Shown here: positions 1,450 to 64,000 of the stretch, piece by piece
How the letters are laid out: every line of letters begins with the position of its first letter
Numbering within the stretch: the first letter of the stretch is position 1
Notes under the pieces: model-generated
What the model was told of the DNA's origin: nothing
Database searches by the model: none
What the model saw: the letters and a program-made list of their open reading frames with translations, nothing else
Assembly: GCA_035449045.1 (NCBI GenBank)
Contig: DAOTKC010000004.1
Coordinates: 4,414-68,413, forward strand
Source: Eubacteriales bacterium
Lineage (GTDB): Bacteria > Bacillota > Clostridia > Christensenellales > CAG-917
Direction: 5' to 3'
Length of the DNA stretch: 64,000 nucleotides
Position numbers and translations under genes: made by a program

Positions 1450-1605
1450 TTATCCTCCCGAGCCCCGGCAAAACGCCGCGGGCCTATTAAAAATCCATTG
1501 CCCAAATTTTTTATCTGTGTTTTGCCAACCTAATACTTCTTTATATGGTCGGGTGCGTTCAAAGACCTTTTCGGTGTTGGGTATTTTTAACAAACCAAAT
1601 ATTTG

Positions 1606-2874
1606 TTATTTGAAGGTGGTGGCGAGCCGTCTTTCTTCTTCTTTTTTGTCCAAAACCTTGGCGACGGCGTTATACACCAGCTGGAACAGCACGCTGTATA
1701 GCGAGCTTGTGAAGAGATAGATGGTGAACGCCGAGCTGTATAAAACGGCGAAGACGCCGAAAATGACGGGCATCAAATACTGCATCATCTTCATGTTGGC
1801 GTTCATGGCGCCGCCCGCCGCGGGATTGGCGGGGTCGACGGGCATTTCGGGTTGTTGTCCTTGAGTCAACTTTTGAGTTAAGAAAGAAAGCGCGATGGAA
1901 AGAAGGGGCAGAAGCAGCCAGCCGTTCCACTTGCCGTTCTTAGCCCAGCCGCTGGTGCCGATGAGCCCGCCCATGACCTTCTCGTAGTCCTCGCGGACGA
2001 CTCCCTGCACGCCGAGCTTGCCCATGCCGGTGCCGCTGAATGTTTCGTATTTGGGAATGCTTTCATTCCATGCGTCGGCGATGAAAACGTTTTTAATCCA
2101 CAGCCACCCCTCGGGCTCATAAGCCGCGGCAACCGCCGCTTGGCCTCTCGCCACGACTTCGGGCTTATCCGCCGCCGCCCTGCCCGCCTGCTGGGCGATG
2201 ATGATGTTGTCGGAGGCGGCTATCGCTTCCTGACGCATACCCTCGGCGTATTCGTCGGTTGCGCCGGCGTCCTTGGCGGCGTTATAGGCCGTGTCGCCGA
2301 TTTCGTCGAGCTTGGCCTGATATGCCGCATCGTATTCGGGTTTGACTTCGGCGTCGTAGACTGTCTTTAATTCGGCATAGCGGTTGGCGTTTTGGAAGTT
2401 GACCATCTTATTGAAGCCGGTGAAGATTAAAATAAAAATAGCCATGGTGAGGATGGTCGGAAGACATGCCCCCAGCATGGAATATTTTTCTTCTTTATAA
2501 AGCAAAAGCTGACGCCTCGAGAATTCTTCGCGGTTGTGGCCGTATTGCTTTTGGAGCTTTTCGAGTTTGGGCTTCATCCGCTCCATCGCCTTGGCGTTTT
2601 TGCGCATGACGTTTTTCTGCCAGAAATCCAAGGGGAGAAGCGCCGTCTTCAAAATCACGGTGAATACAACGACTGTCCAGCCGAAGTTGCCGATGCTCTT
2701 ATTTAAAATGTCCAAAAATTTGGCAATGGGATTGTCGGGCTCGGTGACGGTGCCGTCGGCGTTGACCTGCGCTTGGTTATTGCATGCCGCGAAGACGAAG
2801 AGCGAGAGAATGATAAGGAGCGCCACGGCGTATATTTTGAGCTTTTTTCTTCTTATGTCCGCTAAATAATCCAC
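1606..2874 (-). CDS. yidC: membrane protein insertase YidC/SpoIIIJ family, long form (422 aa), with a lipoprotein-type signal
   Basis: Signal/lipobox LSLFVFAAC; several hydrophobic segments; C-terminal basic tail KKEEERRLATTFK. Position is after rnpA-yidD. Confidence 0.9.
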   Translation of the reverse strand: MDYLADIRRKKLKIYAVALLIILSLFVFAACNNQAQVNADGTVTEPDNPIAKFLDILNKSIGNFGWTVVVFTVILKTALLPLDFWQKNVMRKNAKAMERMKPKLEKLQKQYGHNREEFSRRQLLLYKEEKYSMLGACLPTILTMAIFILIFTGFNKMVNFQNANRYAELKTVYDAEVKPEYDAAYQAKLDEIGDTAYNAAKDAGATDEYAEGMRQEAIAASDNIIIAQQAGRAAADKPEVVARGQAAVAAAYEPEGWLWIKNVFIADAWNESIPKYETFSGTGMGKLGVQGVVREDYEKVMGGLIGTSGWAKNGKWNGWLLLPLLSIALSFLTQKLTQGQQPEMPVDPANPAAGGAMNANMKMMQYLMPVIFGVFAVLYSSAFTIYLFTSSLYSVLFQLVYNAVAKVLDKKEEERRLATTFK

Positions 2875-3104
2875 TTCAATTTACCTCTATAATTTTCGGG
2901 AACCGGGTCGAACCCGCCCTCTTTCCACGGCAGGCACCTAAGAAGGCGCGCAGCCCCCAGCGCGCAGCCCTTTAAAAAGCCGTGTTTTTCAATCGCCTGC
3001 AGCATGTAAATTGAACAGCCGGGCGTGTAGATGCATCTGCTTTTAAGCGACGGCGAGATGAGCCGCTTGTAAAACTTGACTAAGATTATTCCCAAACGCC
3101 GCAT
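2862..3104 (-). CDS. yidD: membrane protein insertion efficiency factor YidD
   Basis: Contains ISPSLKSRCIYTPGCSIYMLQAIEKHGFLKGCALGAARLLRCLPW..GGFDPVP. I place the start at the internal ATG at 3104 (MRRLGIILVKFY), 2 nt after the rnpA stop. The ORF track extends it to 3167. Confidence 0.85.
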   Translation of the reverse strand: MRRLGIILVKFYKRLISPSLKSRCIYTPGCSIYMLQAIEKHGFLKGCALGAARLLRCLPWKEGGFDPVPENYRGKLKWII

Positions 3105-3106
3105 AA

Positions 3107-3451
3107 CTAATCCGTCAGTTTGCCCGCTTTTTCGAGCACGCGGAGCATGGCCGCCCGAACTTCGCAAAATCCGAGTCCGACTATGGTGTCCCGCGGAATA
3201 AAGACATAGCTGAAGCTTTTATCGACCTTGGGCAGGATGTCGCGGAAGCTTTCGCGAAGCAACCGCTTGACACGATTTCTTACCACGCTTTTACCGATTT
3301 TGGTGCTGACCGAAAACCCCGCCTTCATAGCGCGCGTCTTGGCGTAAACAACGGTGAGCTCGGCGGTGTGCGCCGCCTGTCCGCGCTTGTAAATAAACTT
3401 AAAGCCGGCGTCGGAACGAAGCCGGTAATCGGGCGCGGGGGACGCCGTCAT
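3107..3451 (-). CDS. rnpA: ribonuclease P protein component
   Basis: [24 protein letters not shown]...VSTKIGKSVVRNRVKRLLRESFR. The start ATG at 3451 overlaps the rpmH stop by 1 nt (TGATG). The upstream part of the 167-aa track ORF is the rpmH region read in another frame. Confidence 0.85.
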   Translation of the reverse strand: MTASPAPDYRLRSDAGFKFIYKRGQAAHTAELTVVYAKTRAMKAGFSVSTKIGKSVVRNRVKRLLRESFRDILPKVDKSFSYVFIPRDTIVGLGFCEVRAAMLRVLEKAGKLTD

Positions 3452-3585
3452 CAGGCGCTCAACCTCTTTCTGCCTCTGTTTCTGCGGGAAGCCAAAACCC
3501 TTCTGCCGCCGGTAGACTTCATTCTCTTGCGGAAGCCGTGAACTTTGCTTCTCTGTCTTTTCTTGGGTTGATAAGTCCTTTTCAT
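3451..3585 (-). CDS. rpmH: 50S ribosomal protein L34
   Basis: Below the ORF-track size cut-off. My translation is [44 protein letters not shown], preceded by AAGAGGT 8 nt upstream of the ATG. Confidence 0.95.
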
Positions 3586-3775
3586 ATATCCATACCTCTT
3601 GAATAATCAATTAAATTTGCTTTCGTCGCCTTGCGGAGCGTGCCGACAGCCTTAAAAGTATATCTAAATAGCTTTTTTATGTCAAACGTTTTTGATATTT
3701 GGGGCTTCCGGCCCCTCGGGCTTTCTCTTTGCTTCTCTTCCCTTAACGCTTATGAGAAAATTTCGAGCTGAAAAA

Positions 3776-10441: not shown

Positions 10442-11359
10442 ATGGAAGCAAAGATATTGGATATTCAACGGCTGTCGACCGAGGACGGGCCGGGCATACG
10501 CACCACGGTGTTCTTCAAGGGTTGCAACCTTGCCTGCAAGTGGTGCCACAACCCCGAGAGCATAAGCTCGCGCTTCGAGCGCTACTGGGCGGAGGAAAAG
10601 TGCATTTTCTGTAAAACCTGCCTTGAAGCCTGCGCCGCGGGCGCACTTTCGTTTTCCGAAAACGGCTTGATTTTTGATCTTGAAAAATGCTTAAACTGCG
10701 GCCGCTGCGGCGAGGCCTGCCCCACTCTCGCGATTGAAACAAAAGGGCGTTTAATCACCGAAACCGAACTTTATCGTGAATTATTGAAAGATAAAGCCTA
10801 TTTTGGCGCGAACGGCGGCGTTACGCTGTCGGGCGGCGAGCCCATGCTTCAAAGCGATTTTTTGCTTTTGCTTTTAAAGCTCTTGAAAGCTTCGGGAGTT
10901 CATACCGCGCTTGATACAGCCGGCCTTTACGGCGAAGAAAGGCTTGCGCCGGTTCTGCCGTATTTGGACCTTGTGCTGTTTGACTTAAAGTTTATCGATG
11001 CCGCCGAGCACAAGAAATGGGCGGCCGCCGACAATGCACAGATATTGAAAAACGCGCGGATGCTGGGCGCGCTCGACTATCCCAAAGTCTGGGTTCGAAC
11101 GCCGCTCATCCCCGGCGCTACCGCGACGCCCGAGAACATTGCGGCCATCGGCGCCTTTATAAAAGAAAGCATGCCCAATCTTGAAAGATGGGAACTGCCT
11201 GCCTTCAACAACTTGTCGCGGCGGAAATATACCTTGCTCGGGCGGGAATGGGAATTTAAATCGACCGAGCTCATGAAAAGGAAGGAGCTTGACGCGCTCG
11301 CAGGTGTCGCCAAAGCGTATTTTCCCGCCGCCGTCTGGACGGGCAGGGCTACGGATTAA
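10442..11359 (+). CDS. glycyl-radical enzyme activating protein (radical SAM with two ferredoxin-type cluster motifs)
   Basis: CNLACKWCHNPE (CX3CX2C), CIFCKTCLEAC and CLNCGRCGEACP. Directly downstream of the GRE. The track ORF starts at a TTG at 10424; the ATG at 10442 is the more likely start. Confidence 0.9.
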   Translation: MEAKILDIQRLSTEDGPGIRTTVFFKGCNLACKWCHNPESISSRFERYWAEEKCIFCKTCLEACAAGALSFSENGLIFDLEKCLNCGRCGEACPTLAIETKGRLITETELYRELLKDKAYFGANGGVTLSGGEPMLQSDFLLLLLKLLKASGVHTALDTAGLYGEERLAPVLPYLDLVLFDLKFIDAAEHKKWAAADNAQILKNARMLGALDYPKVWVRTPLIPGATATPENIAAIGAFIKESMPNLERWELPAFNNLSRRKYTLLGREWEFKSTELMKRKELDALAGVAKAYFPAAVWTGRATD

Positions 11360-11457
11360 TTAATTCAGCTTATTTACCGCGCTGTTTCGGCTGCAAGTTG
11401 CGGGCCGGCTGCGCTACCTTATGAAAATTAAAAATTTAGGCGAAAAGGGAGATATTT

Positions 11458-12303
11458 ATGAACACCAAATTCAACGAAGAGGCCAAGGAAAAATTTGCCG
11501 TCACCGGAAAAATAGGGCTTATCGCCACGGTGGACCCGAGCGGCATGCCGCACATCACCTTTATCAACACCATCGACACAAAGGACGACGATATTCTAAC
11601 TTTCGGCGAATTTATCCACGGGCTTTCCAAGCAATATATGAAAAGCTACAAAAAAATCGGCTTTTTCGTCATGAATATGGAAAAAGAGTGGTGGACGGGC
11701 ACCGCCGAATATCTTCGCACCGAGGTGACGGGCGAGGAATTCGACAAATACAACAACCAAAAGCTCTTTCGTTACAACACTTATTTCGGAATAGGCAAGG
11801 TCCACTACTTCGCGCTCAAGGATATTTCGGACAAGACCGCGCTTTCAATGGGCGCAGTGGCCGGCTCCGCTATTTACGCAAAAATCGCCAAAAACTTCGC
11901 CAAAAAATCTCCCGCGGGCGACGTAAAAATCAAGGGGCTTACTAAAAAACTCTCTTCCAAGCTCGGCGACCTCCGCTTTATCGCCTACATCGACGGCGAG
12001 GGCTATCCAAGAATACTGCCCGTCATTCAAGCCGCGCTGAAGGACGACCGCGGCCGCCTCGTCATCCCGCTCTCCCCCTATGCCGAGAAGCTTGAAAACC
12101 TTGACTCGGGCGTCAAAACCGCCGTTTTCCTTGCCGACCTTTCACTCTCGACCGCTCTGCTCGAGGGCTCATTCGGCGGAATTAAAACATTTTTAGGCAA
12201 AAAATACGCCATTTTCGACACCGAGCGGGTCTATAACTCGCTGGTGCCCGTGCCCGGCTATATCTACCCCTTCGACGACACTAAATATAAAGAACAAGAT
12301 TAA
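11458..12303 (+). CDS. hypothetical protein, possibly a tandem split-barrel (PNPOx-like FMN-binding) fold
   Basis: 281-aa ORF with an AAGGGAG SD. GKIGLIATVDPSGMPHITFIN resembles the PNPOx-family N-terminal strand. A second half (DLRFIAYIDGEGYPRILPV) looks like an internal duplication. The fold assignment is tentative. Confidence 0.45.
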   Translation: MNTKFNEEAKEKFAVTGKIGLIATVDPSGMPHITFINTIDTKDDDILTFGEFIHGLSKQYMKSYKKIGFFVMNMEKEWWTGTAEYLRTEVTGEEFDKYNNQKLFRYNTYFGIGKVHYFALKDISDKTALSMGAVAGSAIYAKIAKNFAKKSPAGDVKIKGLTKKLSSKLGDLRFIAYIDGEGYPRILPVIQAALKDDRGRLVIPLSPYAEKLENLDSGVKTAVFLADLSLSTALLEGSFGGIKTFLGKKYAIFDTERVYNSLVPVPGYIYPFDDTKYKEQD

Positions 12304-12390
12304 GCCTTTATATAGCCAGGATAATATTTAGACATTCATTTCAAAAAAATGTAAAAAACGAAAAAGCGTTTTGCGCTCATCTGCACAAGT

Positions 12391-12424
12391 TAAAAAAATC
12401 CGCGGGTTTCCGCGGATTTTCGTT
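12391..12424. terminator. bidirectional rho-independent terminator between the convergent hypothetical gene and dnaN
   Basis: AAAAAAATCCGCGG-GTTT-CCGCGGATTTTCGTTT. Confidence 0.8.
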
Positions 12425-12442: not shown

Positions 12443-13543
12443 TTACATAACGATACGGATAGGAAGGATGAGGTAGAGCTCGGGCAAATCGGAGGCCGGC
12501 CTCATGATGCCCGCCGCCGTCGACGTCGTGAACGACATTTTAACCGAGGCGTCGGTGATGGCGCGGAGGCTCTCCATGATGTATTTGGAATTGAAGCCGA
12601 TAGCGAGGTCCTTGCCCTCCGTTTTGATGGGAATATCCTCGACGATGTCGCCGGCCTCGCCTTCCGCCTTTATGTTCAGGTTGTTTTCGGCTATCTCGAA
12701 GCGCACGACGTTCTTTTTATCATTTTTATTGAACTGCGACGCGCGGTTGACGGCGTCCTCGAAATCCTTTTTGTCGGAAATAAACTCGGTTGTGAACTCG
12801 GTCGGAATAATTTTTTTATAATTGATGAAGTCGCCCTCGATGAGCCTTGTCACGATGACGGTGTGGAAGAGGTCTATTTTTAAATAATTCTTTTCGACGG
12901 CCACCTCAAGCTCGTTGTCGTCGTCGTCGATAAGCCTGGCTATCTCGCTGAGGCTTCTTGCCGGCACTATAATGGTCTTTCCTTCGCCCGTGTAATTGAC
13001 GGCGGCGGATGCAAGCGCCAAACGGTAGCCGTTTGATGCGACGGCGCTGACGTTTCCATCCGTCAAATCCAGACAAACGCCCTTGAGTATAGGGCGGCTG
13101 TCTTCCTGCGCGGCGTTAAAAATCACTTTGTTTATTATGTTTTTAAAATCCTTCTTTTGAATTTTAAAGCTCGTTTCCTCTTTTACTTCTTTGAAGGTGG
13201 GGTATTCGTAGACGTTCATTGCCGCGAAATTGGCAACGCCGCCGTAAATAAACTTGACGCGCTCGCGGTTGGTGGCGTCTATTTCGATTGTGACGGCGGG
13301 AAGCCCGCGCGCAAAATCGGCAAGGCTTCTGCCGTTAATCAATGCCTCTCCTTCGATTTTGACGTCGGCGTTAATCTTTTTTTCAATGGCGAGCTCGAGG
13401 TCGGTCGAGGACAGTATCAAAACGTCGCCCTCCGCTTTAAGTTTTATCCCTTCTAGTATCGGGTTTAATTTTTTGAGCGGCATCGCCTTGGTAACTTTAG
13501 ATACCGCATCCGCAAAATCAGTGGAATCACAAAACAGTTTCAT
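12443..13543 (-). CDS. dnaN: DNA polymerase III subunit beta (sliding clamp)
   Basis: 366 aa, MKLFCDSTDFADAVSKVTKAMP...; ends LILPIRIVM; downstream of dnaA. Confidence 0.95.
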   Translation of the reverse strand: MKLFCDSTDFADAVSKVTKAMPLKKLNPILEGIKLKAEGDVLILSSTDLELAIEKKINADVKIEGEALINGRSLADFARGLPAVTIEIDATNRERVKFIYGGVANFAAMNVYEYPTFKEVKEETSFKIQKKDFKNIINKVIFNAAQEDSRPILKGVCLDLTDGNVSAVASNGYRLALASAAVNYTGEGKTIIVPARSLSEIARLIDDDDNELEVAVEKNYLKIDLFHTVIVTRLIEGDFINYKKIIPTEFTTEFISDKKDFEDAVNRASQFNKNDKKNVVRFEIAENNLNIKAEGEAGDIVEDIPIKTEGKDLAIGFNSKYIMESLRAITDASVKMSFTTSTAAGIMRPASDLPELYLILPIRIVM

Positions 13544-13968
13544 TTTTGCCTCTTTTCATTTTCATATAGTATTTTTAATAATAATAATAACAATAAGCGC
13601 TGTGGATTTGTTTACATCCCATCCATTCCCTTATATTTCAACACATTAACCCCAAAAAACAATGTTGACAAGCCGTGCATAACCTTTTCCCTTATTCCAC
13701 ATTTCCCCATTTTCGCCCTTTCCGCTCAAAAAATCCCCTCGCCTTCCCTCTCAATAAGCCCTAAATTCTCCAAATCCCACCTCACAAACATCTCAAATTA
13801 AAAAGATAAAGTTTAGCAAGAGGCACTCGGTTTTTAAATCTAAATTAAAATAGAATTAAAACACGGGATGCCGGGCTAGGCTCGTCGAAAAAGGGGCAGG
13901 CGCGTATTATAATACGTAACTGCCTCACGACGAAGACAGAAACAACGCCCCGCGCTCATATCTGAATT
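13544..13968 (-). other. candidate oriC segment (dnaA-dnaN spacer)
   Basis: 425-bp ORF-free spacer containing a DnaA box, GC cluster, DnaA-trio array and AT-rich stretch next to dnaN. A second box-like site, TATTCCACA, lies at 13693-13701. Confidence 0.65.
13576..13609 (-). promoter_or_regulatory. DnaA box (AAATCCACA) + GCGC + seven DnaA-trios (TTA TTG TTA TTA TTA TTA TTA)
   Basis: Read directly on the minus strand at 13609->13576. The order and spacing match the published basal unwinding system architecture. Confidence 0.65.
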
Positions 13969-15357
13969 CTACCTATGTAATAACATGTCTTTGATGTCTT
14001 GCAACTGTATCCGAAGTTTAGGGTTAGTTTTCAGCCCCTCCGCAATCTTATCCCTAGCGTGTATGACGGTGGTGTGGTCGCGGCCGCCGAAATAGCCGCC
14101 GATGGTGACGAGCGGGAGGGACAGCATCTCGGTTATGAGATAAATAGCTATCATTCTCGGTTCGACAATCTCTTTATTCTTCTTTTTGCCCGTTATGTCG
14201 GCGGTGGAGATGTTGAAATATTTGCAGGTGAAAAAGATGATGTCGTTGGCGTCTATGGTATCTCTCGGCACGTCGATGATGTCTTTTAAAGCCTCTCTTG
14301 CTGCGGCCACCGTGCTGACGGGATGGCCCGACAGCGAGGAGTAGAAGATGACTTTATTTAAAAGCCCTTCCATATCGCGGACGTTGGATTCGGCGTTTTC
14401 GGCGATGAAGTGGGCGACTTCGGGAGTCAGGAAGAAACCCTCCTGCTTGGCCTTTTCTTCCAAAATAGCGATTCTGGTCTCGAGATCGGGCGGCTGGATA
14501 TCGACGGTCAAGCCCCAAGTGAAACGGGTTCTGAGACGCTCGGAAAGATGGGCGATATCCTTGGGCGGACGGTCGGAGGAGAAAATAATTTGCTTGTTCA
14601 TGTGGTGGAGGTCGTTGAAAATGTGGAAGATGGCCTCCTGAACGCCGTCCTTTCCCGCCGTGTATTGAATGTCGTCGAGCATAAGGACGTCGACAAGGCG
14701 GTATTTTTCGCGGAACTTTCTATTAAGCTCTGAGTTGTTACTCTGCCGGATGACATCAAGGTATTCGTTTAAAAATGAGTTGGTCGAAACGTAGAGCACC
14801 TTGATTTGCGGCTTATTTTTTTGTATGTAGTTGCCGATGGCGTGCATCATGTGCGTCTTGCCGAGGCCGACGCCGCCGTAAATAAACAGCGGGTTAAATT
14901 TAGTGCCGGGACAGTCGGCAACCGCCTTGGCCGCCGCCGCCGCGAACTCGTTGGAGCTGCCCACAATGAAGTTGTCGAAGGTGTATTTTTTGTTGAAGGA
15001 AAAAAGCGTGTCGCGGGGGTCGGCCGCGGCATCTTTTATGATAAAGCCGGTGTCGGGCAGCGCCTCGTCCTGACGGTTTAAGTATTCTTCCTTTTCGTCC
15101 TCTCTTATGATTTCGACGCCGGCGACGGAGACGCCCGCCGTCGACTTGGCCGATTCGATGACCTCTTCGGCGATGGTGTCTTTATAGCGCGCCTCGATGG
15201 TCTTTTTGGAAACGTCGGAAGGCGCCGCCAAAACCAGCGTGTTCTTGACAAAACACACCGGCTCCAGCCGCTGCACCCAAACCTCGAAGCCGATTGCGTG
15301 AATCTTGGCCGATAGGCGGCTTAGCGCTTCTTTCCACAGGGAATCCAAGTTGACCAT
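13969..15357 (-). CDS. dnaA: chromosomal replication initiator protein DnaA
   Basis: Walker A GGVGLGKTHMMHAIGN; C-terminal DNA-binding GGRDHTTVIHARDKI. The start is set at the ATG at 15357 (MVNLDSLW). The track ORF begins two codons earlier, at a GTG at 15363. Confidence 0.96.
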   Translation of the reverse strand: MVNLDSLWKEALSRLSAKIHAIGFEVWVQRLEPVCFVKNTLVLAAPSDVSKKTIEARYKDTIAEEVIESAKSTAGVSVAGVEIIREDEKEEYLNRQDEALPDTGFIIKDAAADPRDTLFSFNKKYTFDNFIVGSSNEFAAAAAKAVADCPGTKFNPLFIYGGVGLGKTHMMHAIGNYIQKNKPQIKVLYVSTNSFLNEYLDVIRQSNNSELNRKFREKYRLVDVLMLDDIQYTAGKDGVQEAIFHIFNDLHHMNKQIIFSSDRPPKDIAHLSERLRTRFTWGLTVDIQPPDLETRIAILEEKAKQEGFFLTPEVAHFIAENAESNVRDMEGLLNKVIFYSSLSGHPVSTVAAAREALKDIIDVPRDTIDANDIIFFTCKYFNISTADITGKKKNKEIVEPRMIAIYLITEMLSLPLVTIGGYFGGRDHTTVIHARDKIAEGLKTNPKLRIQLQDIKDMLLHR

Positions 15358-15363
15358 ATGCAC

Positions 15364-15392
15364 ATTATAATATTTTTCCGCTTGAAATTCAA
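15364..15392 (-). promoter_or_regulatory. predicted dnaA promoter: TTGAAT-17-TATAAT, with the -10 ending 6 nt before the ATG at 15357
   Basis: The reverse complement of 15387-15392 is TTGAAT. The reverse complement of 15364-15369 is TATAAT. Confidence 0.5.
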
Positions 15393-15409
15393 GTGTTTTA
15401 GGATATAAT
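15382..15409 (+). promoter_or_regulatory. predicted recF promoter: TTGAAA-16-TATAAT, with the -10 ending 6 nt before the ATG at 15416
   Basis: TTGAAA at 15382-15387 and TATAAT at 15404-15409. No SD precedes the recF ATG. Confidence 0.5.
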
Positions 15410-15415
15410 AAAATA

Positions 15416-16492
15416 ATGGACGCAACCCTCCTAAAGCTTAAAAACTTCCGAAACTACCTAGAAAAAGCGGTGGAGTTTTCGAGCGGATTAAACGTTATCG
15501 AGGGTAAGAACGCGACGGGTAAAACCAACCTTTTGGAGGCGGTCTATCTTTCGGCGTTCGGCCGTTCGCCCCGTGCGGTCAAAGACAAGGAAATGATTAA
15601 CCACGGCGCTTCTCAAGCGCAAGTCCGTCTTAATTTAGAAAAAAAGTTCCGCTCCCACAAAATCGAAGTTTTTTTATTAGATAACAACAAAAAAAGCGTG
15701 CTGATTGACGGCATTCCCGCCGCCCGCTCCAACGAGCTGCTCGGCATGCTCTCCGTCGTCTATTTTTCGCCCGACGAGCTAAAGCTCATAAAAAACTCGC
15801 CCGAGGAACGCCGCCGCTTTATGGACGTCAGCCTCTGCCAGCAGAAAAAGGCCTACTTTTTCGCGCTTTCGGGCTACAATCGCCTTCTAAAACAGCGGAA
15901 CGCACTGCTTAAAGAAAGCAACTCAAAGGCAATCGCCGACACGCTGGATATCTGGGACGCCGAGATGGCAAAGACGGGCGCCGAGATAATTTTTGAGCGC
16001 GCCGCCTTTTTAAAGGGATTGGAGGCCGATGCCCGCCGCGCTCACTACGCGATAAGCGGCGGCGGCGAGGAGCTATCCCTTTTATACGAAACCGAAACTT
16101 CGGGACAAACCAAAGAGGAGCTTAGGGCGGGTATTTTGGAAGCGCTCAAGGCCGGCCGAGAGCGTGATTTGAATCTTAAATATACCGGCGCCGGCCCCCA
16201 TCGCGACGATATTAAAATTGCGCTCGACGGCCGCGACGCCAGAAAATTCGCGTCCCAAGGCCAAATCCGCACCTCGACGCTGGCGCTTAAGGTTGCCGAA
16301 ACCGCGCTCATTAAAGCGGAAACGGGCGAAAGTCCGGTGCTTCTTTTGGACGACGTGCTGTCGGAGCTCGACGAGTCCCGCCAAGCCGCCCTTTTGAATT
16401 TCGTTTCGGGGACACAGGTCATAGTGAGCTGCACCGAGTTCAAGCTTTCTGCGGTAAAGCCCGATAATATAATTAGAACAACGCCCGTTTAG
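15416..16492 (+). CDS. recF: DNA replication and repair protein RecF
   Basis: LKLKNFRNY...GKNATGKTNLLEAVY Walker A; LLLDDVLSELD Walker B/signature. Confidence 0.95.
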   Translation: MDATLLKLKNFRNYLEKAVEFSSGLNVIEGKNATGKTNLLEAVYLSAFGRSPRAVKDKEMINHGASQAQVRLNLEKKFRSHKIEVFLLDNNKKSVLIDGIPAARSNELLGMLSVVYFSPDELKLIKNSPEERRRFMDVSLCQQKKAYFFALSGYNRLLKQRNALLKESNSKAIADTLDIWDAEMAKTGAEIIFERAAFLKGLEADARRAHYAISGGGEELSLLYETETSGQTKEELRAGILEALKAGRERDLNLKYTGAGPHRDDIKIALDGRDARKFASQGQIRTSTLALKVAETALIKAETGESPVLLLDDVLSELDESRQAALLNFVSGTQVIVSCTEFKLSAVKPDNIIRTTPV

Positions 16493-16554
16493 CAAATAGT
16501 TTATAATTATTCGGCACGACTCCGACGGTTATGCTAAAAAATCTTATAATAGAT

Positions 16555-16585
16555 AAAAAATCCGCTTCTTGCGGATTTTTTTTTG
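16555..16585 (+). terminator. recF terminator
   Basis: AAAATCCGC-TTCTT-GCGGATTTTTTTTT. Confidence 0.8.
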
Positions 16586-16598
16586 CATTTGTCATAAG

Positions 16599-16627
16599 TT
16601 GCCAATATGTTTATTATATGATATAAT
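16599..16627 (+). promoter_or_regulatory. predicted gyrB promoter: TTGCCA-17-(TGa)TATAAT
   Basis: TTGCCA at 16599-16604, TATAAT at 16622-16627, with an extended -10 TG at 16619-16620. This implies an about 270-nt leader. Confidence 0.5.
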
Positions 16628-16768
16628 ACTCTATAATTATATTATCTTAAATATGTGCGCGTGCATACGCGCGGGCAATTTTTTAGCTACGCAGCGGCAG
16701 ACAAGGATTAACCCGCGCAATATAACGGCATAAATGATACTAACGAACAGTTAAACGAAGAGCCTTAA

Positions 16769-16895
16769 CCAAGCTAAAAACCAAGCTAAAAACCAAGCTA
16801 AAAAATCAAGCTAAAAAATCAAGCTAAAAAATCAAGCTAAAAAATCAAGCTAAAAAACCAAGCTAAAAACCGAGGTAAAAAGCCGAGGTTAAGGA
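16769..16895 (+). repeat. tandem 12/13-bp array: eight CCAAGCTAAAAA / TCAAGCTAAAAAA units plus two degenerate CCGAGGT units, ending in the gyrB SD
   Basis: AAGCTAAAAA starts at 16771, 16783, 16795, 16808, 16821, 16834, 16847 and 16860. These are followed by CCGAGGTAAAAAG and CCGAGGTTAAGGAG. Confidence 0.95.
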
Positions 16896-16901
16896 GCATA
16901 A

Positions 16902-18827
<1,926 letters not shown>

Positions 18828-18835
18828 GAGATATT

Positions 18836-21379
18836 ATGTCCAAAAATCAAGACAAAGACAGAGAATATATCGAGCATCTATCTAAATCCAACATCGTCAA
18901 GGTCAAAGTCGATGACGAGATGAAAAAATCCTTCATCGCCTACGCCATGGCGGTCAACGTTTCGCGCGCCATTCCCGATGTGCGCGACGGCCTTAAGCCC
19001 GTTCACAGAAGGATTCTCTATTCCATGAGCGAGCTCAATCTGACCTCGGACAAGCCTTACCGCAAATGCGCGCTCATAGTGGGCGACGTGCTCGGCAAAT
19101 ACCACCCCCACGGCGACTCCTCCGTCTATGAAGCCCTCGTCAGGATGGCGCAGGACTTTTCGATACGCTGCCCCCTCGTCGACGGGCACGGCAACTTCGG
19201 CTCGGTGGACGGCGACCCGGCCGCGGCATACCGCTATACCGAGGCTAAGCTCAGTAAAATCGCCTCCGAGATGATAAGGGACATCGAAAAAAACACCGTC
19301 GATTTTTATCCCAACTTCGACAACACCAAGGACCAGCCCTCGGTGCTGCCCGCGCGCTTCCCCAACCTTTTGGTCAACGGCTCCGACGGCATAGCAGTCG
19401 GCATGGCGACGTCGATACCGCCTCACAACTTGGGCGAGGTGATTGACGGCACCGTCGCGCTCATCGACAACCCCGACATCGAAATAGCCGACCTCATGGA
19501 ATACATTCCCGCGCCCGACTATCCCACCGCCGCCGTCGTCCTCGGGCGGGCGGCCATCCGCCAAGCTTACATGACCGGCCGCGGGGGCGCAGTTATCCGC
19601 GCCCGCGCCGAAATCGAGGAAAGCCCAAACGGCAGAAGCCGGATTGTCGTCACAGAACTTCCCTACCAAGTCAACAAAGCCAAGCTCATTGAAACGATAG
19701 CCGACCAGGTCAAGGATAAGCGCCTCGAGGGAATTTCCGACATCAGCGAGGAATCCGACCGCTCGGGCATGCGGATTGTCATTGAAATAAAGCGCGATGC
19801 CAATCCCAACGTCGTCCTCAACACCCTCTACAAGCAGACCAACATGCAGATAACCAACAGCATTATTTTGCTTGCCTTGGTGGACGGCGTGCCCCGCATC
19901 TTAAATTTGAAGCAGATGCTTCAATACTATATCGAGCATCAGGAGCAGGTCGTCATCCGCCGCACCCGCTTCGACCTCGACAAAGCGCAGGAGCGTGAGC
20001 ACATCATTCACGGCCTTGTTATCGCGCTCGACAACATCGACGCCGTCATTGAAACGATTAAGGCCTCGCCCGACCGCGCCGCCGCCATGACAAACCTGAT
20101 GGAGGGCTTCGCGCTCTCCGAAAAGCAGGCCGCGGCCGTCCTCGATATGCGCTTGCAGCGGCTTACCGGCCTCGAAGTGGGCAAACTTAAAGAGGAGCTC
20201 GTCGAGCTCGAAGGGCAAATCGAGTATTTCAAGGGCATTTTAGCCTCGCCCGAAAAGGTGCGCGATATAATAAAGACCGAACTTCTCGAAATCAAGGAAA
20301 AATACGGCACGCCTCGCCGCTCCGAGCTTTCCTACGACTACACCGAGCTCAACATAGCCGATTTAATTGAGCGGCAGGACATCGTGGTGTCGCTGACTCA
20401 CCTCGGATATATCAAGCGCATGCCCGTTTCGGAATACCGCAGCCAGAACCGCGGCGGCACCGGCATGCAGGCCCACAAGCCCAAGGAAGACGACTTCGTC
20501 GAAAGCATGTTCATCACCAATACCCACAAATATATTCTCTTTTTCACCAACTTGGGCAAGGTCTACCGCATGATGGGCTACGAGATTCCCGAAGCGGCGA
20601 GAACGGCGAGAGGGCGCGCCATCGTAAATCTTCTTCAGCTTGCCGAAAACGAGAAAGTGACGGCCATGCTCCGCCATCAGGAAAATCAGACGGGCTACCT
20701 CATGCTTGCCACCAAAAACGGCAAAATTAAAAAGACCGACCTTAAAGAGTTCGAGAGCATTAGGACCAACGGCAAAATCGCCATCGTGCTCGCACCCGAC
20801 GACGAGCTGGTTGCGGCGGCGGTGACGGCGGGCGACGAGGAGATTATTCTGGCATCCAGCTCGGGCAAATGCATCCGCTTTAAAGAGGAAGACGTCCGCG
20901 ATATGGGCCGCGTCGCACAGGGCGTCAAGAGCATTAAATTGAAAGAGGGCGAAAGCGTCGTCGATATGGCGGTCATCAAGGAGGATTGCGAAATTTTGAC
21001 CGTCACCCAAAACGGCTTCGGCAAACGCACCGACCAAAACGAATACCGCGTTCAGGGCCGCGCCGGCATGGGTATTCTCGCCGGACGCTTCAGCGAGGAG
21101 ACGGGCGGGCTGGTCTGCCTTAAGGTGATTCCGCCCGACACCGACATCATGCTGATTGCCGATAACGGCGTCATGATCCGCATCAAGGCGCGCGATATCA
21201 GCAAAATCGGCCGCGCCACCAAGGGCGTCATCATAATGCGCCTTAAAAACGACAGCAAGGTTATCTGCGTCGCGCTGACTCCCGCCGAAGAAGAGGACGA
21301 AAACGCCGAAAACGGCGAGGCAGTCGAAACGGCTGCGGAGGAAACGGCGAGCGAAGAATCGGCTGCGCCGAACGAATAA
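18836..21379 (+). CDS. gyrA: DNA gyrase subunit A, with an acidic C-terminal tail
   Basis: [46 protein letters not shown]; GyrA-box/beta-pinwheel C-terminus; tail [24 protein letters not shown]. Confidence 0.97.
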
Positions 21380-38731: not shown

Positions 38732-39160
38732 AAAACTCCGAGTGACGGCTCGGGAACAAAATGACTTTGAGAAGAACTATATATGCCCCGGCGCAAAGCG
38801 CAACGCCTTAGGCCGATGTAAAGCAGTAGAAAACTTAAAATATCAACAAAAAGCGCGCTAGCACGAAAATACAGAAGTTCGCAAAAGTTACGAATTAGCG
38901 CAAAAAAGACCAAGCATTTAAAAACCGCAAACGGAGCTGCAAAACTCCCATAAGGCGCAAAGCAAACGGATTATGCCGGCTATTAAGCAAGCCTCTAGGT
39001 TTATAGTTGCTTCGTAAATAGCCGAAACCTTGCAATCCGGATTGCCGCGCGCGGTGCGGAAAGCATAAGACGCTATCGAATAGCGGTATTAAAAAATAAG
39101 TATTATATTAACAAAATAGGTCTTTTCTAAAAAAGCAGAAAACGGACTTAGCGGCAAAAA

Positions 39161-39739
39161 ATGATATATCTAAAATTGTTTTGGGCGTTTTTCCAAATAG
39201 GAATCATGAGCTTCGGAGGCGGGCTGTCTTCGCTACTGCTTGTGCAGCAGCAGACGGTCGACATCTATGGCTGGCTCACTCTTTCGGAATACGCCGACAT
39301 TGTGACGATAGCCGAAATGACGCCCGGCCCAATCGGGCTCAACGCCGCGACTTTCTCGGGCATGCAAATAGGCGGAATTTTAGGGGCTATCATTTCAACT
39401 TTCGCCTACATTTTGCCCGCATTTGTAATTGTCTTGCTTCTAGCCTTTCTGTTCTATCGCTATAAAAACTTAAAAGGCGTCCGCATCGTAGTCGACACCA
39501 TGAAGCCTGCCGTGGTAGCATTTGTCGCTGCGGCCGGTCTTTCAATTCTGCTCTTGGCGTTTTTCGGCACCAACAACTTAAAAGCGCTAAGCTTTAAAAA
39601 CTTCAACTATGCTTCGGTCGGGCTGTTTGTCGCGGGGCTAATAGCGCTTCGGCTGTTCAAAAAGGTCAATCCCGTTTTCATAATTTTAGGCGCCGGCCTC
39701 GTCGGCCTTGCCGTCTATCAATTTGTCCCCCTGCCGTAA
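39161..39739 (+). CDS. chromate transporter (ChrA family) half-protein 2
   Basis: FQIGIMSFGGGLSSLLLVQQQTVDIYGWLTLSEYADIVTIAEMTPGPIGLN. Confidence 0.8.
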   Translation: MIYLKLFWAFFQIGIMSFGGGLSSLLLVQQQTVDIYGWLTLSEYADIVTIAEMTPGPIGLNAATFSGMQIGGILGAIISTFAYILPAFVIVLLLAFLFYRYKNLKGVRIVVDTMKPAVVAFVAAAGLSILLLAFFGTNNLKALSFKNFNYASVGLFVAGLIALRLFKKVNPVFIILGAGLVGLAVYQFVPLP

Positions 39740-40200
39740 ATTCCCTTTTTAAGCTTTCCTTGCAGTTTAAATCGGACGCCACATATTTGCCGCTCGTTAA
39801 GCGGCCTGTTCTCAAATGCACGAAGCATAAATAGACTCGCGTAAGCGTTCGCGTCCGCAAAAGCAGACTCCTTAACAGCAGCATACCCTTGAAACTCGCA
39901 TTAGCGTTCCGCGCCGAGGAGCCGAACCACGCCGCGCGCTATATATCGAGCGGAATAATTGTGACGACGCGCCGAGTTTACCTTGCGAGCAAAATCACCG
40001 TTAAACGAACAATTGACACGCACTCGGCTAATCTATACCCTCATTCTAAAAACCGGAATGCTCAATACCTATTTTTTAATTCACTAAGCCCGCTACAAAT
40101 CATTCAACCGCGAGCCACGGGAACTCCGTCGCGAACCCGGATTCACAACACAAACAAAAATCGCGGTAATTTTCGACATATTTTCGCAAATTACTTGCCG

Positions 40201-40216
40201 TGTTTCACGTGGAACA
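40201..40216. promoter_or_regulatory. parS-like site TGTTTCACGTGGAACA
   Basis: 15/16 match to the Firmicutes parS consensus TGTTNCACGTGAAACA. Confidence 0.7.
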
Positions 40217-40911
40217 ATTTGTAGAAAAACGCCCATATTATCGTGACTTTCTGGCGCTTTTAGGATAAAAACAGTGCATTTTTTGTTTTATGGGTCGCAG
40301 CGCGTCGGACCGTGGCTAAAAACGCCGCGCGTCGCCGCAAAAAGCCCGAGCTCGCATAAAAAAGCCGCCTGCTTTCCCGAATGCGTGAGGGTTCGCCGAG
40401 GATAAGCTCGCCCGAGGTCGTCTTTGCGGCAAAACGCCAAAAACACTCATATCCACACAAAAGCCCCGTTCGATGATAAAAGGGCGGCCTTTCCGCCTAA
40501 TCGAGTCCGGCAACCACCCCTTTTGCTCCGAGCGGATTTAGCGCTCCGGATTACTCTTAAATAGGGCTTTTGCCTGCCCGCCTTGCGCCATGACGACCTT
40601 ACTTAACTAATTTCGTCCCGAAAGGACGATTTAATGCACTCTTGTGGTTGCAGTAGCGAACAAATTACGCCTCTTTGCCCCCTAAATGGCTAAAATGATT
40701 ATAATTGCAGTTAAATAGGCCGCGATTGCGTTTATTTGCCTTGTGTGCAGGGCGATACAGGCCCATTTTCTCGTGCAATCCGGTCTTCTTCCAATGCCTC
40801 GCCAAAGGTAAATTAAGACGCGCTAACCTTCCGGCGTCCCAGGTCTCTTGCGCGCGTGTAATAAACCTCGAAAGCGGCTTGAAAATCTCTATTTTTTGTA
40901 GAATATTTATA

Positions 40912-40927
40912 TGTTCCACGTGGAACT
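40912..40927. promoter_or_regulatory. parS-like site TGTTCCACGTGGAACT (perfect 14-bp palindrome GTTCCACGTGGAAC)
   Basis: 14/16 match to the parS consensus. Its right half-site is the same as that of the 40201 site. Confidence 0.65.
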
Positions 40928-40942
40928 ATTTTGGGGACAAAT

Positions 40943-40958
40943 TGTTTCACGCGAAACA
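40943..40958. promoter_or_regulatory. parS-like site TGTTTCACGCGAAACA
   Basis: 15/16 match to the parS consensus. It lies 15 bp after the previous site. Confidence 0.65.
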
Positions 40959-41266
40959 TCGCAAATTTTATTTTTCGCGCTTTTTAGGACAAAATAGGGA
41001 CAAGCCGCACAAAAGTAGGTTAAACATAGGAAAAACACTTGAAAATCCGCTACCATTTTAGGGAGTTATGGGAAGTGGAAATGTGGAAAAATAAAAAATT
41101 TCTTTCTTCGTGTTTTTTCACAGCAAAAAATATAGAGCTTTCTTCGTGTAATTTAAGAGCATGTTTTTTTAATGAATTTTAAGCTTATTCATGAATATAA
41201 AAATGGCCGTTTGGACATGCTTATTTTAAGATATTTTTGGAGGCATTTTTTTTGAAAGGAAAGCAT

Positions 41267-41419
41267 ATGATGACTGTTTGCGCTGGTTGCGGAAGCCCAA
41301 TTGATCCTGAAAGCGCCTCAAAATGTCCTATGTGCGGCAATGCGTATTGCCCTACCTGCACGAGTTCGGCTAATAAAATATGCAGTCATTGCTCGTCGGA
41401 AACCAAGTTTTTGCATTGA
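41267..41419 (+). CDS. small Cys-rich protein (50 aa), putative double zinc ribbon
   Basis: MMTVCAGCGSPIDPESASKCPMCGNAYCPTCTSSANKICSHCSS has four CxxC pairs. AAAGGAAAG SD. A strong terminator follows. Confidence 0.5.
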   Translation: MMTVCAGCGSPIDPESASKCPMCGNAYCPTCTSSANKICSHCSSETKFLH

Positions 41420-41473
41420 CTGCGATTTAATCGGCGCATTTCTTCAGCGGAATTTTTAACTTTCTTATAGCGA

Positions 41474-41501
41474 AAAACGCGCTTCTGCGGCGCGTTTTTT
41501 T
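41474..41501 (+). terminator. terminator after the zinc-ribbon gene
   Basis: AACGCGC-TTCTGCG-GCGCGTTTTTTT. Confidence 0.8.
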
Positions 41502-41656
41502 AGTCTTTGTTCCACGATATTTTTTACCTTATATTATACTTTGTATAATATAAAATGCGAAATTTATCTTTGGGCGGTCTGCGGCGTTTGCTGCCTGCTC
41601 GCGAAACAGCCACTTATTTTCTCCCCACCAGATGTTTTCATCTGACGGGGACCTCG

Positions 41657-41840
41657 ATAAAGTTCGTGCGGGCTTATTTCGGGGTTCCCATTGAATGCCA
41701 GTCATCAATGGGGTAATTTCGAGCCTACATTCCCATCCCATATCTTAATTTCGCTGATTTGGAATTATGTTAACAAAACCCCTATCATTAAATTGCTCGG
41801 CGTTCCGCTTATAAAGCTCGTGCGGGCTTATTTCGGGGTT
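41657..41840. repeat. pair of 30-bp direct repeats (ATAAAG(T/C)TCGTGCGGGCTTATTTCGGGGTT) spaced 154 bp apart
   Basis: Copies at 41657-41686 and 41811-41840, with 1 mismatch. Confidence 0.9.
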
Positions 41841-41850
41841 TGACAAGGAT

Positions 41851-43233
41851 TTAATGGGGGTAAGTTAGGGTTAAGGTTGCAGAGAGGGAGTAATGGTATT
41901 CTTTGCAGGCGGTGACCTTAACGGTGTAGGTTTGACCCGAAACGACGAAGAATGAAATGTCAAAAGAGTTGTCGGTAAGGTCGGTTGCGATTATGATGCC
42001 GTTTAAAGATACCGAGTAGACGGCGCCCACTATTTCGTCCCAGCTTAAAAACGCGCCGTCCACGGCAAGCGAAAATGTTTGGGTGATGTCAAGATAGGTG
42101 CAATAGGTCATTTCCGCCGAATTCTCGGACTCGCGGCTTTCCAAAACGTGTTTAAGCGATATGCGGTGCTCGCCCGCCGCACTTAGGAGTTCGCCCGGGA
42201 TTTTAAATTTGAAAGAGCCGTCGTCTTGAGAAATAAGAGCATCGCGCTCGATGGCATAATCTTCGCCGTCAATAATCAGAGAAATTTCGGCATAAGAAGC
42301 GGACTCGAAGAAATACACGTAAACGCCGTCGTCGCCGATAAACAGCCCGAGGGGAAGGGGCGGCGGCAGGGGACGGTCATAAAAAATTGTCACGATGTTT
42401 GATGTGATGCTGTATTTGGCGCCCGAAGGCAAAAGCCCGCAAACGACCAAATAGACTTGGTGTTCGCCGTCGCAATCCGCATAATCCGCGATATCGAAGC
42501 CCGACGCCGCGCCTAGGTAGGCTTGGCCGTCTAAATAGAGTGTAAGGCCTAAAGCTCCCTCAGGAGTTTGCCAAATAACGCGCGTGCCCGAGGCTTGAAC
42601 AACAACTTCGGGCGGCTCTTCGGTCACGCCCTCCGCCTCGAAGTATGCCGCAATTTCGGTATTTTTAACGATAATAAAGGTATATTCGGCGTTTTCAGAA
42701 ACTTGCGCGCCGCTCATTGTCCAATGCGAAAAGCGGTAACCAAGATCGGGAACGGCGGTAAGCGTTATCTCGGCGGCGAGCAAGGCGCCGCTCGCCAAAA
42801 GCTCGATTTCACCGCAAAACTCGGCGCCGTCAAAAAGTATTTTGCCGCCGTCCGGCACCGCTATCGTGACGGTATACTTAATGTCGTCGGCCTCTTCGCT
42901 CTTTGTTGCGGCTATGACTATATCGGCGGCGTCGCCGAATACGTCGTATTTCGGGATATCGTAGCCTTCTTTACCGAAAGTAAGCGTTGACGGGCAGGGG
43001 ATGCCGTTGAGCAAGAAATGCCCGTCCAGGTCGGTTGCAGCGGCAAAACTGCCGTCGACAAAAACCGAAACGCCCGAAAGGCCTTCGTCTTCACAGCTCA
43101 CTCTGCCCGATACCGTTACCGTCTTATCAAGAAAGTCCTCACCGCCGTCCTCCGCTTGGCAGGACGCCGCCGCCAAAATGAAAACCGCCAAAACCAGCGC
43201 GGCAAGCATTAATTTTAGGACGAGCTTTTTCAT
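41851..43233 (-). CDS. surface lipoprotein with a CarboxypepD_reg-like domain, a GYxFxxW-type repeat and FN3-like domains
   Basis: MKKLVLKLMLAALVLAVFILAAASC lipobox. VSGRVSCEDEGLSGVSVFVDG...DGHFLLNGIP. LTAVPDLGYRFSHWTMSG. The start ATG at 43233 overlaps the upstream stop (ATGA). Confidence 0.7.
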   Translation of the reverse strand: MKKLVLKLMLAALVLAVFILAAASCQAEDGGEDFLDKTVTVSGRVSCEDEGLSGVSVFVDGSFAAATDLDGHFLLNGIPCPSTLTFGKEGYDIPKYDVFGDAADIVIAATKSEEADDIKYTVTIAVPDGGKILFDGAEFCGEIELLASGALLAAEITLTAVPDLGYRFSHWTMSGAQVSENAEYTFIIVKNTEIAAYFEAEGVTEEPPEVVVQASGTRVIWQTPEGALGLTLYLDGQAYLGAASGFDIADYADCDGEHQVYLVVCGLLPSGAKYSITSNIVTIFYDRPLPPPLPLGLFIGDDGVYVYFFESASYAEISLIIDGEDYAIERDALISQDDGSFKFKIPGELLSAAGEHRISLKHVLESRESENSAEMTYCTYLDITQTFSLAVDGAFLSWDEIVGAVYSVSLNGIIIATDLTDNSFDISFFVVSGQTYTVKVTACKEYHYSLSATLTLTYPH

Positions 43234-63087: not shown

Positions 63088-63138
63088 ATGTTTCACAAAT
63101 GTTTCACAAGGCAAAAAATGTTTCACGAAATGTTTCAC
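63088..63138 (+). repeat. four direct copies of ATGTTTCAC (parS left half-site)
   Basis: Copies at 63088, 63099, 63118 and 63130. The last is part of the palindrome ATGTTTCACAAACAT. Confidence 0.8.
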
Positions 63139-63162
63139 AAACATTATCTATCATGTTATAAT
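63134..63162 (+). promoter_or_regulatory. predicted parB-like promoter: TTCACA-17-(TGt)TATAAT
   Basis: TTCACA at 63134-63139 lies inside half-site repeat 4. TATAAT at 63157-63162 has an extended -10 TG. Confidence 0.5.
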
Positions 63163-63191: not shown

Positions 63192-64000
63192 ATGTCGGAT
63201 TTTTTTGAGGATAACGCGGGAGGGAGCATTGTAAATTTAGCGATTGACCTCATCGATGCCAACCCCGAACAGGCAAGAAAAAATTTCGACGATGAAAAAC
63301 TCTCCGAACTTGCCTCTTCCATCAAGAGCGTGGGCGTGTTGAATCCGATTTTGGTCTACCGCGAGGGCGACAGGTTCACCATCATCGCGGGCGAGCGAAG
63401 ATACCGCGCCTGCAAAAAGCTGGGGCTGACTGCCATTCCCGCCATAATCCACGAGGCCGACGAGCGTGAGTCGAGCAAAAAGTCGCTCATCGAAAACCTG
63501 CAGCGCGAGGATTTAAATCCCATCGAGGCAGCCGAGGCAATCTCCGACCTTATAGAGAAAAATAAGATGACGCAGGACGAGGTCGCGAGAGAAATAGGCA
63601 AGGCGCGCTCCACCGTCACCAACCTTTTAAGGCTTTTGATGCTTCCCGTCGAGGTCATCGACATGGTCAGAAACCGCGAGCTTTCGGCCGGCCACGCCAG
63701 ATGCTTGGTCGTCATCGACGACAAGGACGTTTTAATCTCCTTCGCCAAAATGGCGGTGTCGGGCAAGCTTTCCGTCCACGACCTAGAAACACGGGTTAAG
63801 CTCTACTTCACGAGGAAACAGATTCCGCAGGGCCCTCGCGCCGGCAAGCCCGCCCAAAGCCGCGAGCTCAAAGAGCTCGTCAGCGATATGAAGCGCATCT
63901 TCGCCACCAAAGTGAAAGTGGTCGGCAACGATAAAAAGGGCAGAATTTACATAGACTATTTTTCCGCCGACGACCTTCAGCGGATTTACGAGCTTATGCA
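63192..64000 (+). CDS. ParB/Spo0J/Noc family protein (partial, runs off the window end)
   Basis: Not in the ORF track. My translation is MSDFFEDNAGGSIVNLAIDLIDANPEQARKNFDDEKLSELASSIKSVGVLNPILVYREGDRFTIIAGERRYRACKKLGL...IENLQREDLNPIEAAEA...HTH...SAGHARCL. AGGAGG SD. Confidence 0.85.
   Translation, partial: MSDFFEDNAGGSIVNLAIDLIDANPEQARKNFDDEKLSELASSIKSVGVLNPILVYREGDRFTIIAGERRYRACKKLGLTAIPAIIHEADERESSKKSLIENLQREDLNPIEAAEAISDLIEKNKMTQDEVAREIGKARSTVTNLLRLLMLPVEVIDMVRNRELSAGHARCLVVIDDKDVLISFAKMAVSGKLSVHDLETRVKLYFTRKQIPQGPRAGKPAQSRELKELVSDMKRIFATKVKVVGNDKKGRIYIDYFSADDLQRIYELM

Follow-up and report, generated by a model that had tools for sequence, protein, structure and literature searches.

A probable origin-proximal centromere with three clustered parS sites in an uncultured Clostridia lineage

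The parS sites of Bacillus subtilis are distributed across a large part of its chromosome, and most of them fall within genes. One or more parS sites near oriC, with the consensus TGTTNCACGTGAAACA, are present in most bacteria; B. subtilis has 10 sites in all, of which 8 map to the origin domain (PMC7022226). Corynebacterium glutamicum has ten within a 35-kb region located 73 kb from oriC, nine of which are intergenic (PMC7083940). In Pseudomonas aeruginosa, parS1-4 form a cluster next to oriC, and the intergenic members of the cluster also repress adjacent promoters (PMC7022226).

The locus that we describe here shares features with all three systems. As in B. subtilis Spo0J/parS, there is a 16-bp palindrome (with 0 to 2 mismatches here), the position is origin-proximal and a ParB-type protein is encoded nearby; unlike in B. 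subtilis, three sites are packed into 760 bp of non-coding DNA with no others at up to 2 mismatches in 72 kb, and no parA was seen beside parB. The one-sided, origin-proximal cluster of B. subtilis-like sites in intergenic DNA resembles that of C. glutamicum; however, it is tighter (0.76 kb as compared to 35 kb), has fewer sites, belongs to a different phylum (here Clostridia) and places all three sites in one unusually long gene-free gap, whereas the C. glutamicum sites occupy separate intergenic regions. It is also a small origin-proximal cluster with intergenic sites, like parS1-4 of P. aeruginosa, but promoter control appears here only as weak consensus matches. A preliminary description of this DNA had called the cluster unusual on the grounds that such sites are normally found within genes, which holds relative to B. 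subtilis but not when C. glutamicum (PMC7083940) and P. aeruginosa (PMC7022226) are considered.

To locate parS sites, we searched the whole stretch of DNA that was analysed (64 kb; hereafter the window) for matches with up to 3 mismatches to the consensus, and found the three clustered 16-mers listed in Table 1 and a single further match, with 3 mismatches, at 31248. The three 16-mers had been reported in the preliminary description, and their coordinates are exact, with 0 or 1 (depending on the strand), 2 and 1 mismatches to the consensus. The inner 14 nt of parS-2, GTTCCACGTGGAAC, are a perfect palindrome and were also scored as a stem-loop. The centres of parS-2 and parS-3 are 31 bp apart. 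Across the whole window and at the same threshold, we observed 7 strand-hits, as compared to 0.86 ± 1.03 in dinucleotide-shuffled sequences, and 0 of 100 shuffles reached 7. As a background, other Clostridia loci totalling 888 kb contained only three matches, all isolated and each with 2 mismatches. There were no full parS-like sites elsewhere in the window at up to 2 mismatches, and none at up to 3 mismatches in the approximately 9.5 kb by which the 72-kb contig of the same species extends beyond the window. The parS cluster is real and far above chance expectation.

Table 1. Coordinates of features at the parS locus and of the ParB-family gene, in window positions
Feature	Position	Strand	Description
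Left non-coding DNA	39740..40200		47.5% GC, C-rich (GC skew –0.215), no excess structure; 4 strain variants including one 1-bp indel
Inverted repeat, left arm (28 nt)	40195..40222		parS-1 and 6-nt flanks; pairs with 40937-40964
parS-1	40201..40216		TGTTTCACGTGGAACA on plus (1 mismatch); minus strand reads TGTTCCACGTGAAACA, a perfect consensus match (0 mismatches)
Spacer, parS-1 to parS-2	40217..40911		695 bp, non-coding, 48.9% GC; 6 strain variants including two 1-bp indels
Recurring word, copy 1	40254..40270	+	GCGCTTTTAGGATAAAA; 38 nt right of parS-1
parS-2	40912..40927		TGTTCCACGTGGAACT; 2 mismatches to TGTTNCACGTGAAACA
Inverted repeat, right arm (28 nt)	40937..40964		parS-3 and flanks ACAAAT and TCGCAA
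parS-3	40943..40958		TGTTTCACGCGAAACA; 1 mismatch to TGTTNCACGTGAAACA
parS-3 to zinc-ribbon ORF	40959..41266		30.8% GC; ~36-nt tandem repeat with core TTTCTTCGTGT
Recurring word, copy 2	40977..40994	+	GCGCTTTTTAGGACAAAA; 19 nt right of parS-3
ParB-family gene	63192..64000 (cut by window end)	+	275 aa, complete on the species' 72-kb contig

The window covers the origin region of the chromosome, with jag, yidC and rnpA (541-3610), dnaN (12443-13543) and dnaA (13969-15363) on the minus strand, and recF, gyrB and gyrA (15416-21379) on the plus strand; mnmE-mnmG are also present on the species' 72-kb contig. The distance from the parS cluster to dnaA is approximately 25 kb. Upstream of the cluster are a glycine-cleavage operon and a split chromate-transporter pair, and downstream are lineage-specific genes that are surface-protein-like. 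A tRNA and tmRNA scan returned none. We rejected the parS locus as oriC itself, since DnaA boxes are not clustered there: at 1 mismatch we found no DnaA-box cluster and just two boxes at the locus.

We compared the ParB-family protein encoded 22 kb from the cluster, whose gene is followed by rsmG, with known families and structures. It scores 174.7 bits against TIGR00180, the NCBIfam ParB domain (cut-off 58.45), and falls below the cut-off of the Noc model, and the solved structures that it matches best are those of bona fide ParB/Spo0J proteins. The positions of the DNA-binding helix set specificity for parS as opposed to Noc sites. In the protein of this genome, the helix region reads GKARSTVTN...SAGHAR, like Thermus Spo0J (GKARSTVAN...TAGHAR) and Myxococcus ParB; in contrast, the Noc structure differs in that region (GKGQSTIANK...TERHAR). 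By these residues the protein has a helix of the ParB rather than the Noc type, and it is likely the partner of the parS sites. The gene calls on the 72-kb contig include no ParA-like gene, so the system may be ParB-only or parA may lie elsewhere. ParB-only systems are known, for example in Streptococcus pneumoniae (Table 1 of PMC7022226).

Taken together, matches far above chance, a position approximately 25 kb from dnaA/dnaN and recF-gyrB-gyrA and a ParB-type gene 22 kb away support the reading of the locus as a chromosomal centromere near the origin, formed by three clustered, putatively ParB-binding parS sites, and we give this reading a probability of roughly 0.8; the suggestion of a centromere-like locus in the preliminary description thus stands. 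The locus is probably a loading site for SMC as well as for ParB. The steps by which a ParABS system works are established. ParB dimers of this genome would recognise each 16-bp palindrome, and ParB would bind CTP, close into a clamp and then slide along the DNA on either side. The partition complex formed in this way would mark the origin region for segregation and load SMC condensin. With three sites in 760 bp and two of them at 31 bp spacing, the local loading rate would be higher. The approximately 1.2 kb of DNA around and between the sites would be functionally passive filler within the ParB-coated zone, and may have been eroded beyond recognition.

For users of these genomes, this reading would place a probable centromere, a ParB/SMC loading point, in a deep-branching uncultured Clostridia lineage known from metagenomic assemblies only, and it would serve annotation and help to orient the origin region of these metagenome-assembled genomes (MAGs), which NCBI names 'Eubacteriales bacterium' or 'Clostridia bacterium'. 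The NCBI proteins HPD01822.1, HRR89578.1 and HRU84066.1 lead to the assemblies. Since intergenic clusters of parS close to oriC are already well known, the finding opens no new question; the sole residue left to explain is the persistence of about 1.2 kb of DNA with near-genomic G+C and without detectable function.

This DNA belongs to by far the longest gene-free gap of the window (39740-41266). The ORFs listed within the gap are of small size and odd composition and overlap one another on the two strands. When we scored codon usage as log-odds, with 33 genes of the window as the training set, all six frames came out negative from 39740 to 41850, and the score was positive in chrA2 and in the gene for a 470-aa protein on either side. 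The only protein-like ORF preceded by a Shine-Dalgarno (SD) sequence encodes a 50-aa zinc ribbon with four CxxC motifs (41267-41419). We found the same species in at least 10 independent metagenome assemblies at 99.4–100% identity, and in all 8 assemblies that span it, gene callers left empty the whole 2.1-kb gap that includes this interval. The claim that the region lacks credible ORFs is upheld on each of these points. The accompanying claim that it is not AT-rich is correct for 39740-40200 (47.5% G+C) and 40217-40911 (48.9%), but not for 40959-41266 (30.8%), which resembles a normal promoter with its leader. For reference, most other intergenic stretches have 28–43% G+C and the whole window has 51.5%. 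A passive spacer gives no explanation for a G+C content of 39740-40911 above the intergenic level.

When we compared the strains, we found that parS-1, parS-2 and parS-3 are identical in all 8 strain contigs that span the locus and that the surrounding 1.5 kb has 11 variants. The invariance of the three 16-mers is weak evidence, because the local density predicts only about 0.4 variants for 48 bp. Variant density is 8.7 per kb in 39740-40200 and 7.9 per kb in the parS span, with three 1-bp indels in total, as compared to 9–10 per kb in two other intergenic stretches and 0–4.7 per kb in the flanking genes.

Beyond the species, relatives are distant. In a set of 5.8 billion proteins, the closest ChrA2 has 58% identity and the closest GcvPB 68%, with no synteny, and three GcvPB relatives have only the gcv operon in common with this locus. 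Among GTDB genomes and JGI metagenomes, credible full-length matches to ChrA2 reach at most 54% identity and one partial match reaches 66% over its best segment; no parS sites were found near the ChrA2 homologues from GTDB and JGI. Our searches found no homologues of the downstream 470-aa protein, and the 90%-identity clusters contained no divergent members.

The base composition bears on whether 39740-40200 and 40217-40911 are one or more eroded former genes, in which parS sites were already present or arose later. The G+C content of 47.5–48.9%, between the values of most intergenic stretches and that of the window, is the only hint that we found of such an origin; the exceptional length of the gap would fit it, and SNPs and indels at about 8 per kb, the intergenic level, suggest an absence of constraint. 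However, residual codon bias is absent in every frame, and a six-frame Pfam search at E ≤ 1 gave one chance-level match only. When the longest stop-free stretch (129 aa) was compared by phmmer with 1.84 billion representatives, the one stretch covered by this large-library search, we recovered two tandem-repeat proteins only, both matched via many short stretches, and we take them as spurious. A tblastn search with all 43 stop-free pieces against approximately 0.95 Mb of Clostridia loci and the rest of the window gave nothing below E = 0.05, and skew analysis gave no informative signal for the strand of a former gene. Thus, frameshifted gene remnants, which the preliminary description had set against its own proposal, were found neither by six-frame Pfam nor by phmmer of the 129-aa stretch nor by tblastn. 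We regard an eroded gene as possible though on balance unlikely, and it is compatible with a centromere.

A large structured non-coding RNA, be it a novel class or a divergent member of the ROOL, GOLLD, OLE, raiA or HEARO type, would agree with the length of the gap, its lack of ORFs and its near-genomic G+C content. It would also agree with the few small GC hairpins that are present, one of which is a weak terminator-like site at 40497-40483 of the minus strand. In size and lack of ORFs, and in these alone, the gap resembles the large Firmicutes RNAs OLE, ROOL, GOLLD, raiA and HEARO; unlike them, it has no covariance-model match and no thermodynamic signal. With Rfam 15, we obtained 0 matches at the gathering score in the whole 64-kb window, and at E ≤ 10 on 39400-41900 there was no match within 39740-41266, the matches at that level being terminator-like fragments at approximately 41397-41581 and one junk match inside chrA2. 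Relative to dinucleotide shuffles, the folding z-score of 40217-40911 is –0.19 on the plus strand and –0.66 on the minus strand, and that of 39740-40200 is +0.29 and +0.25 on the two strands. A 120-nt sliding scan is flat within the gap except for windows with z < –2.5 at start 39740 (plus strand, z –2.7, right after the chrA2 stop) and two that cover the parS-2/parS-3 palindromes. Terminator-like sites number 5, as compared to 4.6 ± 2.2 in shuffles, and promoter-like sites number 9, as compared to 4.2 ± 2.4, approximately 2 standard deviations above. Among strains that are 99.4–100% identical, the gap carries three 1-bp indels and several SNPs.

Given these data, we consider a large RNA very improbable. 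The preliminary description had read the region as hairpin-rich in the manner of a structured RNA and had raised an unannotated large RNA; neither proposal is sustained, with whole-segment z-scores from –0.66 to +0.29, a terminator-like count at the shuffle level, no Rfam match, no excess folding energy, and SNPs at intergenic density together with 1-bp indels. Because there is no Rfam or folding signal and strains differ by SNPs and indels at the intergenic level, the gap DNA behaves as unconstrained intergenic DNA. It would be a long shot that selection has preserved this 1.2 kb of gene-free DNA, either as a transcription-free platform on which ParB clamps and SMC land and accumulate or as the source of a lineage-specific, weakly structured transcript linked to the partition complex, with a recurring 17-nt word as the site of a second factor.

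That word, GCGCTTTT(T)AGGA(T/C)AAAA, occurs in direct orientation after both parS-1 and parS-3. Both recurring words of the preliminary description are present, this one at 40254 and 40977 and TTGTAGAA at 40219 and 40895. A promoter-like match on the minus strand, from 40992 to 40965 (TTGTCC, 16 nt, TAAAAT), overlaps the second copy of the word and is a consensus match only. If active, this promoter would start transcription at about parS-3, which suits the idea that the parS sites, chiefly the parS-2/parS-3 pair, are operators at which ParB represses either this promoter or that of the zinc-ribbon ORF, approximately 310 bp downstream. The presence of a recurring word beside two of the three sites would also suit operators, four half-parS repeats at 63089-63143, in front of the parB gene, suggest that ParB is also a regulator in this genome, and the intergenic parS3 and parS4 of P. 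aeruginosa are a precedent (PMC7022226). However, the matches to the promoter consensus are poor (9 of 12) and their number is only about 2 standard deviations over shuffles (9 as compared to 4.2 ± 2.4), and parS-1 has no comparable partner promoter. We think it improbable that the sites are mainly operators, and regulation would add to the role of a centromere rather than replace it.

The flanks of the sites show a further pattern. The 28-nt arms of the inverted repeat in Table 1 are 86% complementary (blastn E = 0.009) and enclose 714 nt of non-coding DNA, an arrangement that could point to the 770-bp segment 40195-40964 as a non-autonomous mobile element with parS in its terminal repeats by chance. 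But the palindromic parS itself accounts for 16 of the 28 nt, which leaves just the 6-nt flanks as information on this point. A second copy is absent from the window and from all fetched Clostridia loci, a plasmid collection contains no similar DNA, a phage collection gave one chance-level 48-nt match outside the repeat-bounded segment, and no target-site duplication is evident. With no further copy in the window, the fetched loci or plasmids and one chance-level match in phages, the segment is not a repeated mobile element, and we find a mobile origin hardly credible.

The flanks also show features that the centromere reading does not account for. In addition to the inverted repeat around parS-1 and parS-3, parS-1 and parS-2 have a 20-nt direct match in common, and when the two parS-bearing segments, each approximately 100 bp, were aligned, they resembled a single module that had been copied and had since diverged. 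The flanks that the sites have in common and the 17-nt word that recurs beside them hint at a duplicated parS module or at a second bound factor.

Upstream of the ParB-family gene, which begins at position 63192 of the window on the plus strand, we found four direct-repeat copies of a half-parS sequence, ATGTTTCAC(A/G)AA, within positions 63089–63143. Directly downstream of the four copies, the parB-like gene has its ribosome-binding site and a TATAAT-like box. Half-sites that all point the same way in a parB promoter, instead of forming inverted repeats, suggest autoregulation through putative half-site binding. These direct repeats may be more unusual than the cluster of three parS-like sites itself.

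At 63192–64000 of the window and 10834–12415 of the fetched locus L118, rsmG (gidB) directly follows the ParB-family gene, and ung and proS precede it. No ParA gene was called across the species' 72-kb contig, and the locus may represent a ParB-only arrangement. At 12443–16492 of the window, minus-strand dnaA-dnaN and plus-strand recF-gyrB-gyrA are divergent, with a dnaA-recF spacing of only 52 bp; rnpA-yidC-jag, which shares the strand of dnaA, lies at a distance of 10 kb. With one mismatch allowed, the whole window showed no clustering of DnaA boxes.

To the right of the gene-free gap that carries the parS-like sites, an ORF of 50 aa (41267–41419) encodes four CxxC motifs. It is preceded by a good Shine-Dalgarno sequence and ends at a strong terminator, but it scores poorly for codon usage, and the assemblies list no gene whose product matches it exactly. 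The ORF probably encodes a genuine small zinc-ribbon protein overlooked by gene callers. The AT-rich region upstream of it contains a tandem repeat of about 36 nt (core TTTCTTCGTGT, family D1 of our repeat search), which may be an operator.

Between the zinc-ribbon ORF and the point where the 470-aa gene ends (its 3' end), the sequence at 41440–41760 is strongly structured as RNA (z = –6.4), and the sliding folding scan gave low scores on both strands. This stretch, which falls outside the coordinates of the parS-bearing gap, also holds several GC hairpins in addition to the elements listed in the table; its Rfam search returned terminator-like fragments and no other match.

Positions of repeats and structural elements in the window
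Feature	Position	Context or basis
Half-parS direct repeats	starts 63090, 63101, 63120, 63132	sequence
Intrinsic terminator	41472–41500	inside structured stretch 41440–41760
AT palindrome	41529–41553	inside structured stretch 41440–41760
30-nt direct repeat	41657–41686, 41811–41840	154 bp apart
16-nt direct repeat (family D11)	39835–39850, 39894–39909	59 bp apart
~36-nt tandem repeat (family D1)	41089–41160	AT-rich region

Two further direct repeats were found, one of 30 nt (ATAAAG(T/C)TCGTGCGGGCTTATTTCGGGGTT, copies 97% identical) and one of 16 nt (ACTCGC(G/A)T(A/T)AGCGTTC), the latter in C-rich DNA on the left side of the parS-bearing gap. Further left, the two chromate-transporter halves are separated by a 429-bp non-coding gap of 42% GC (38732–39160), and the C-terminus of ChrA1 extends into a long acidic tail.
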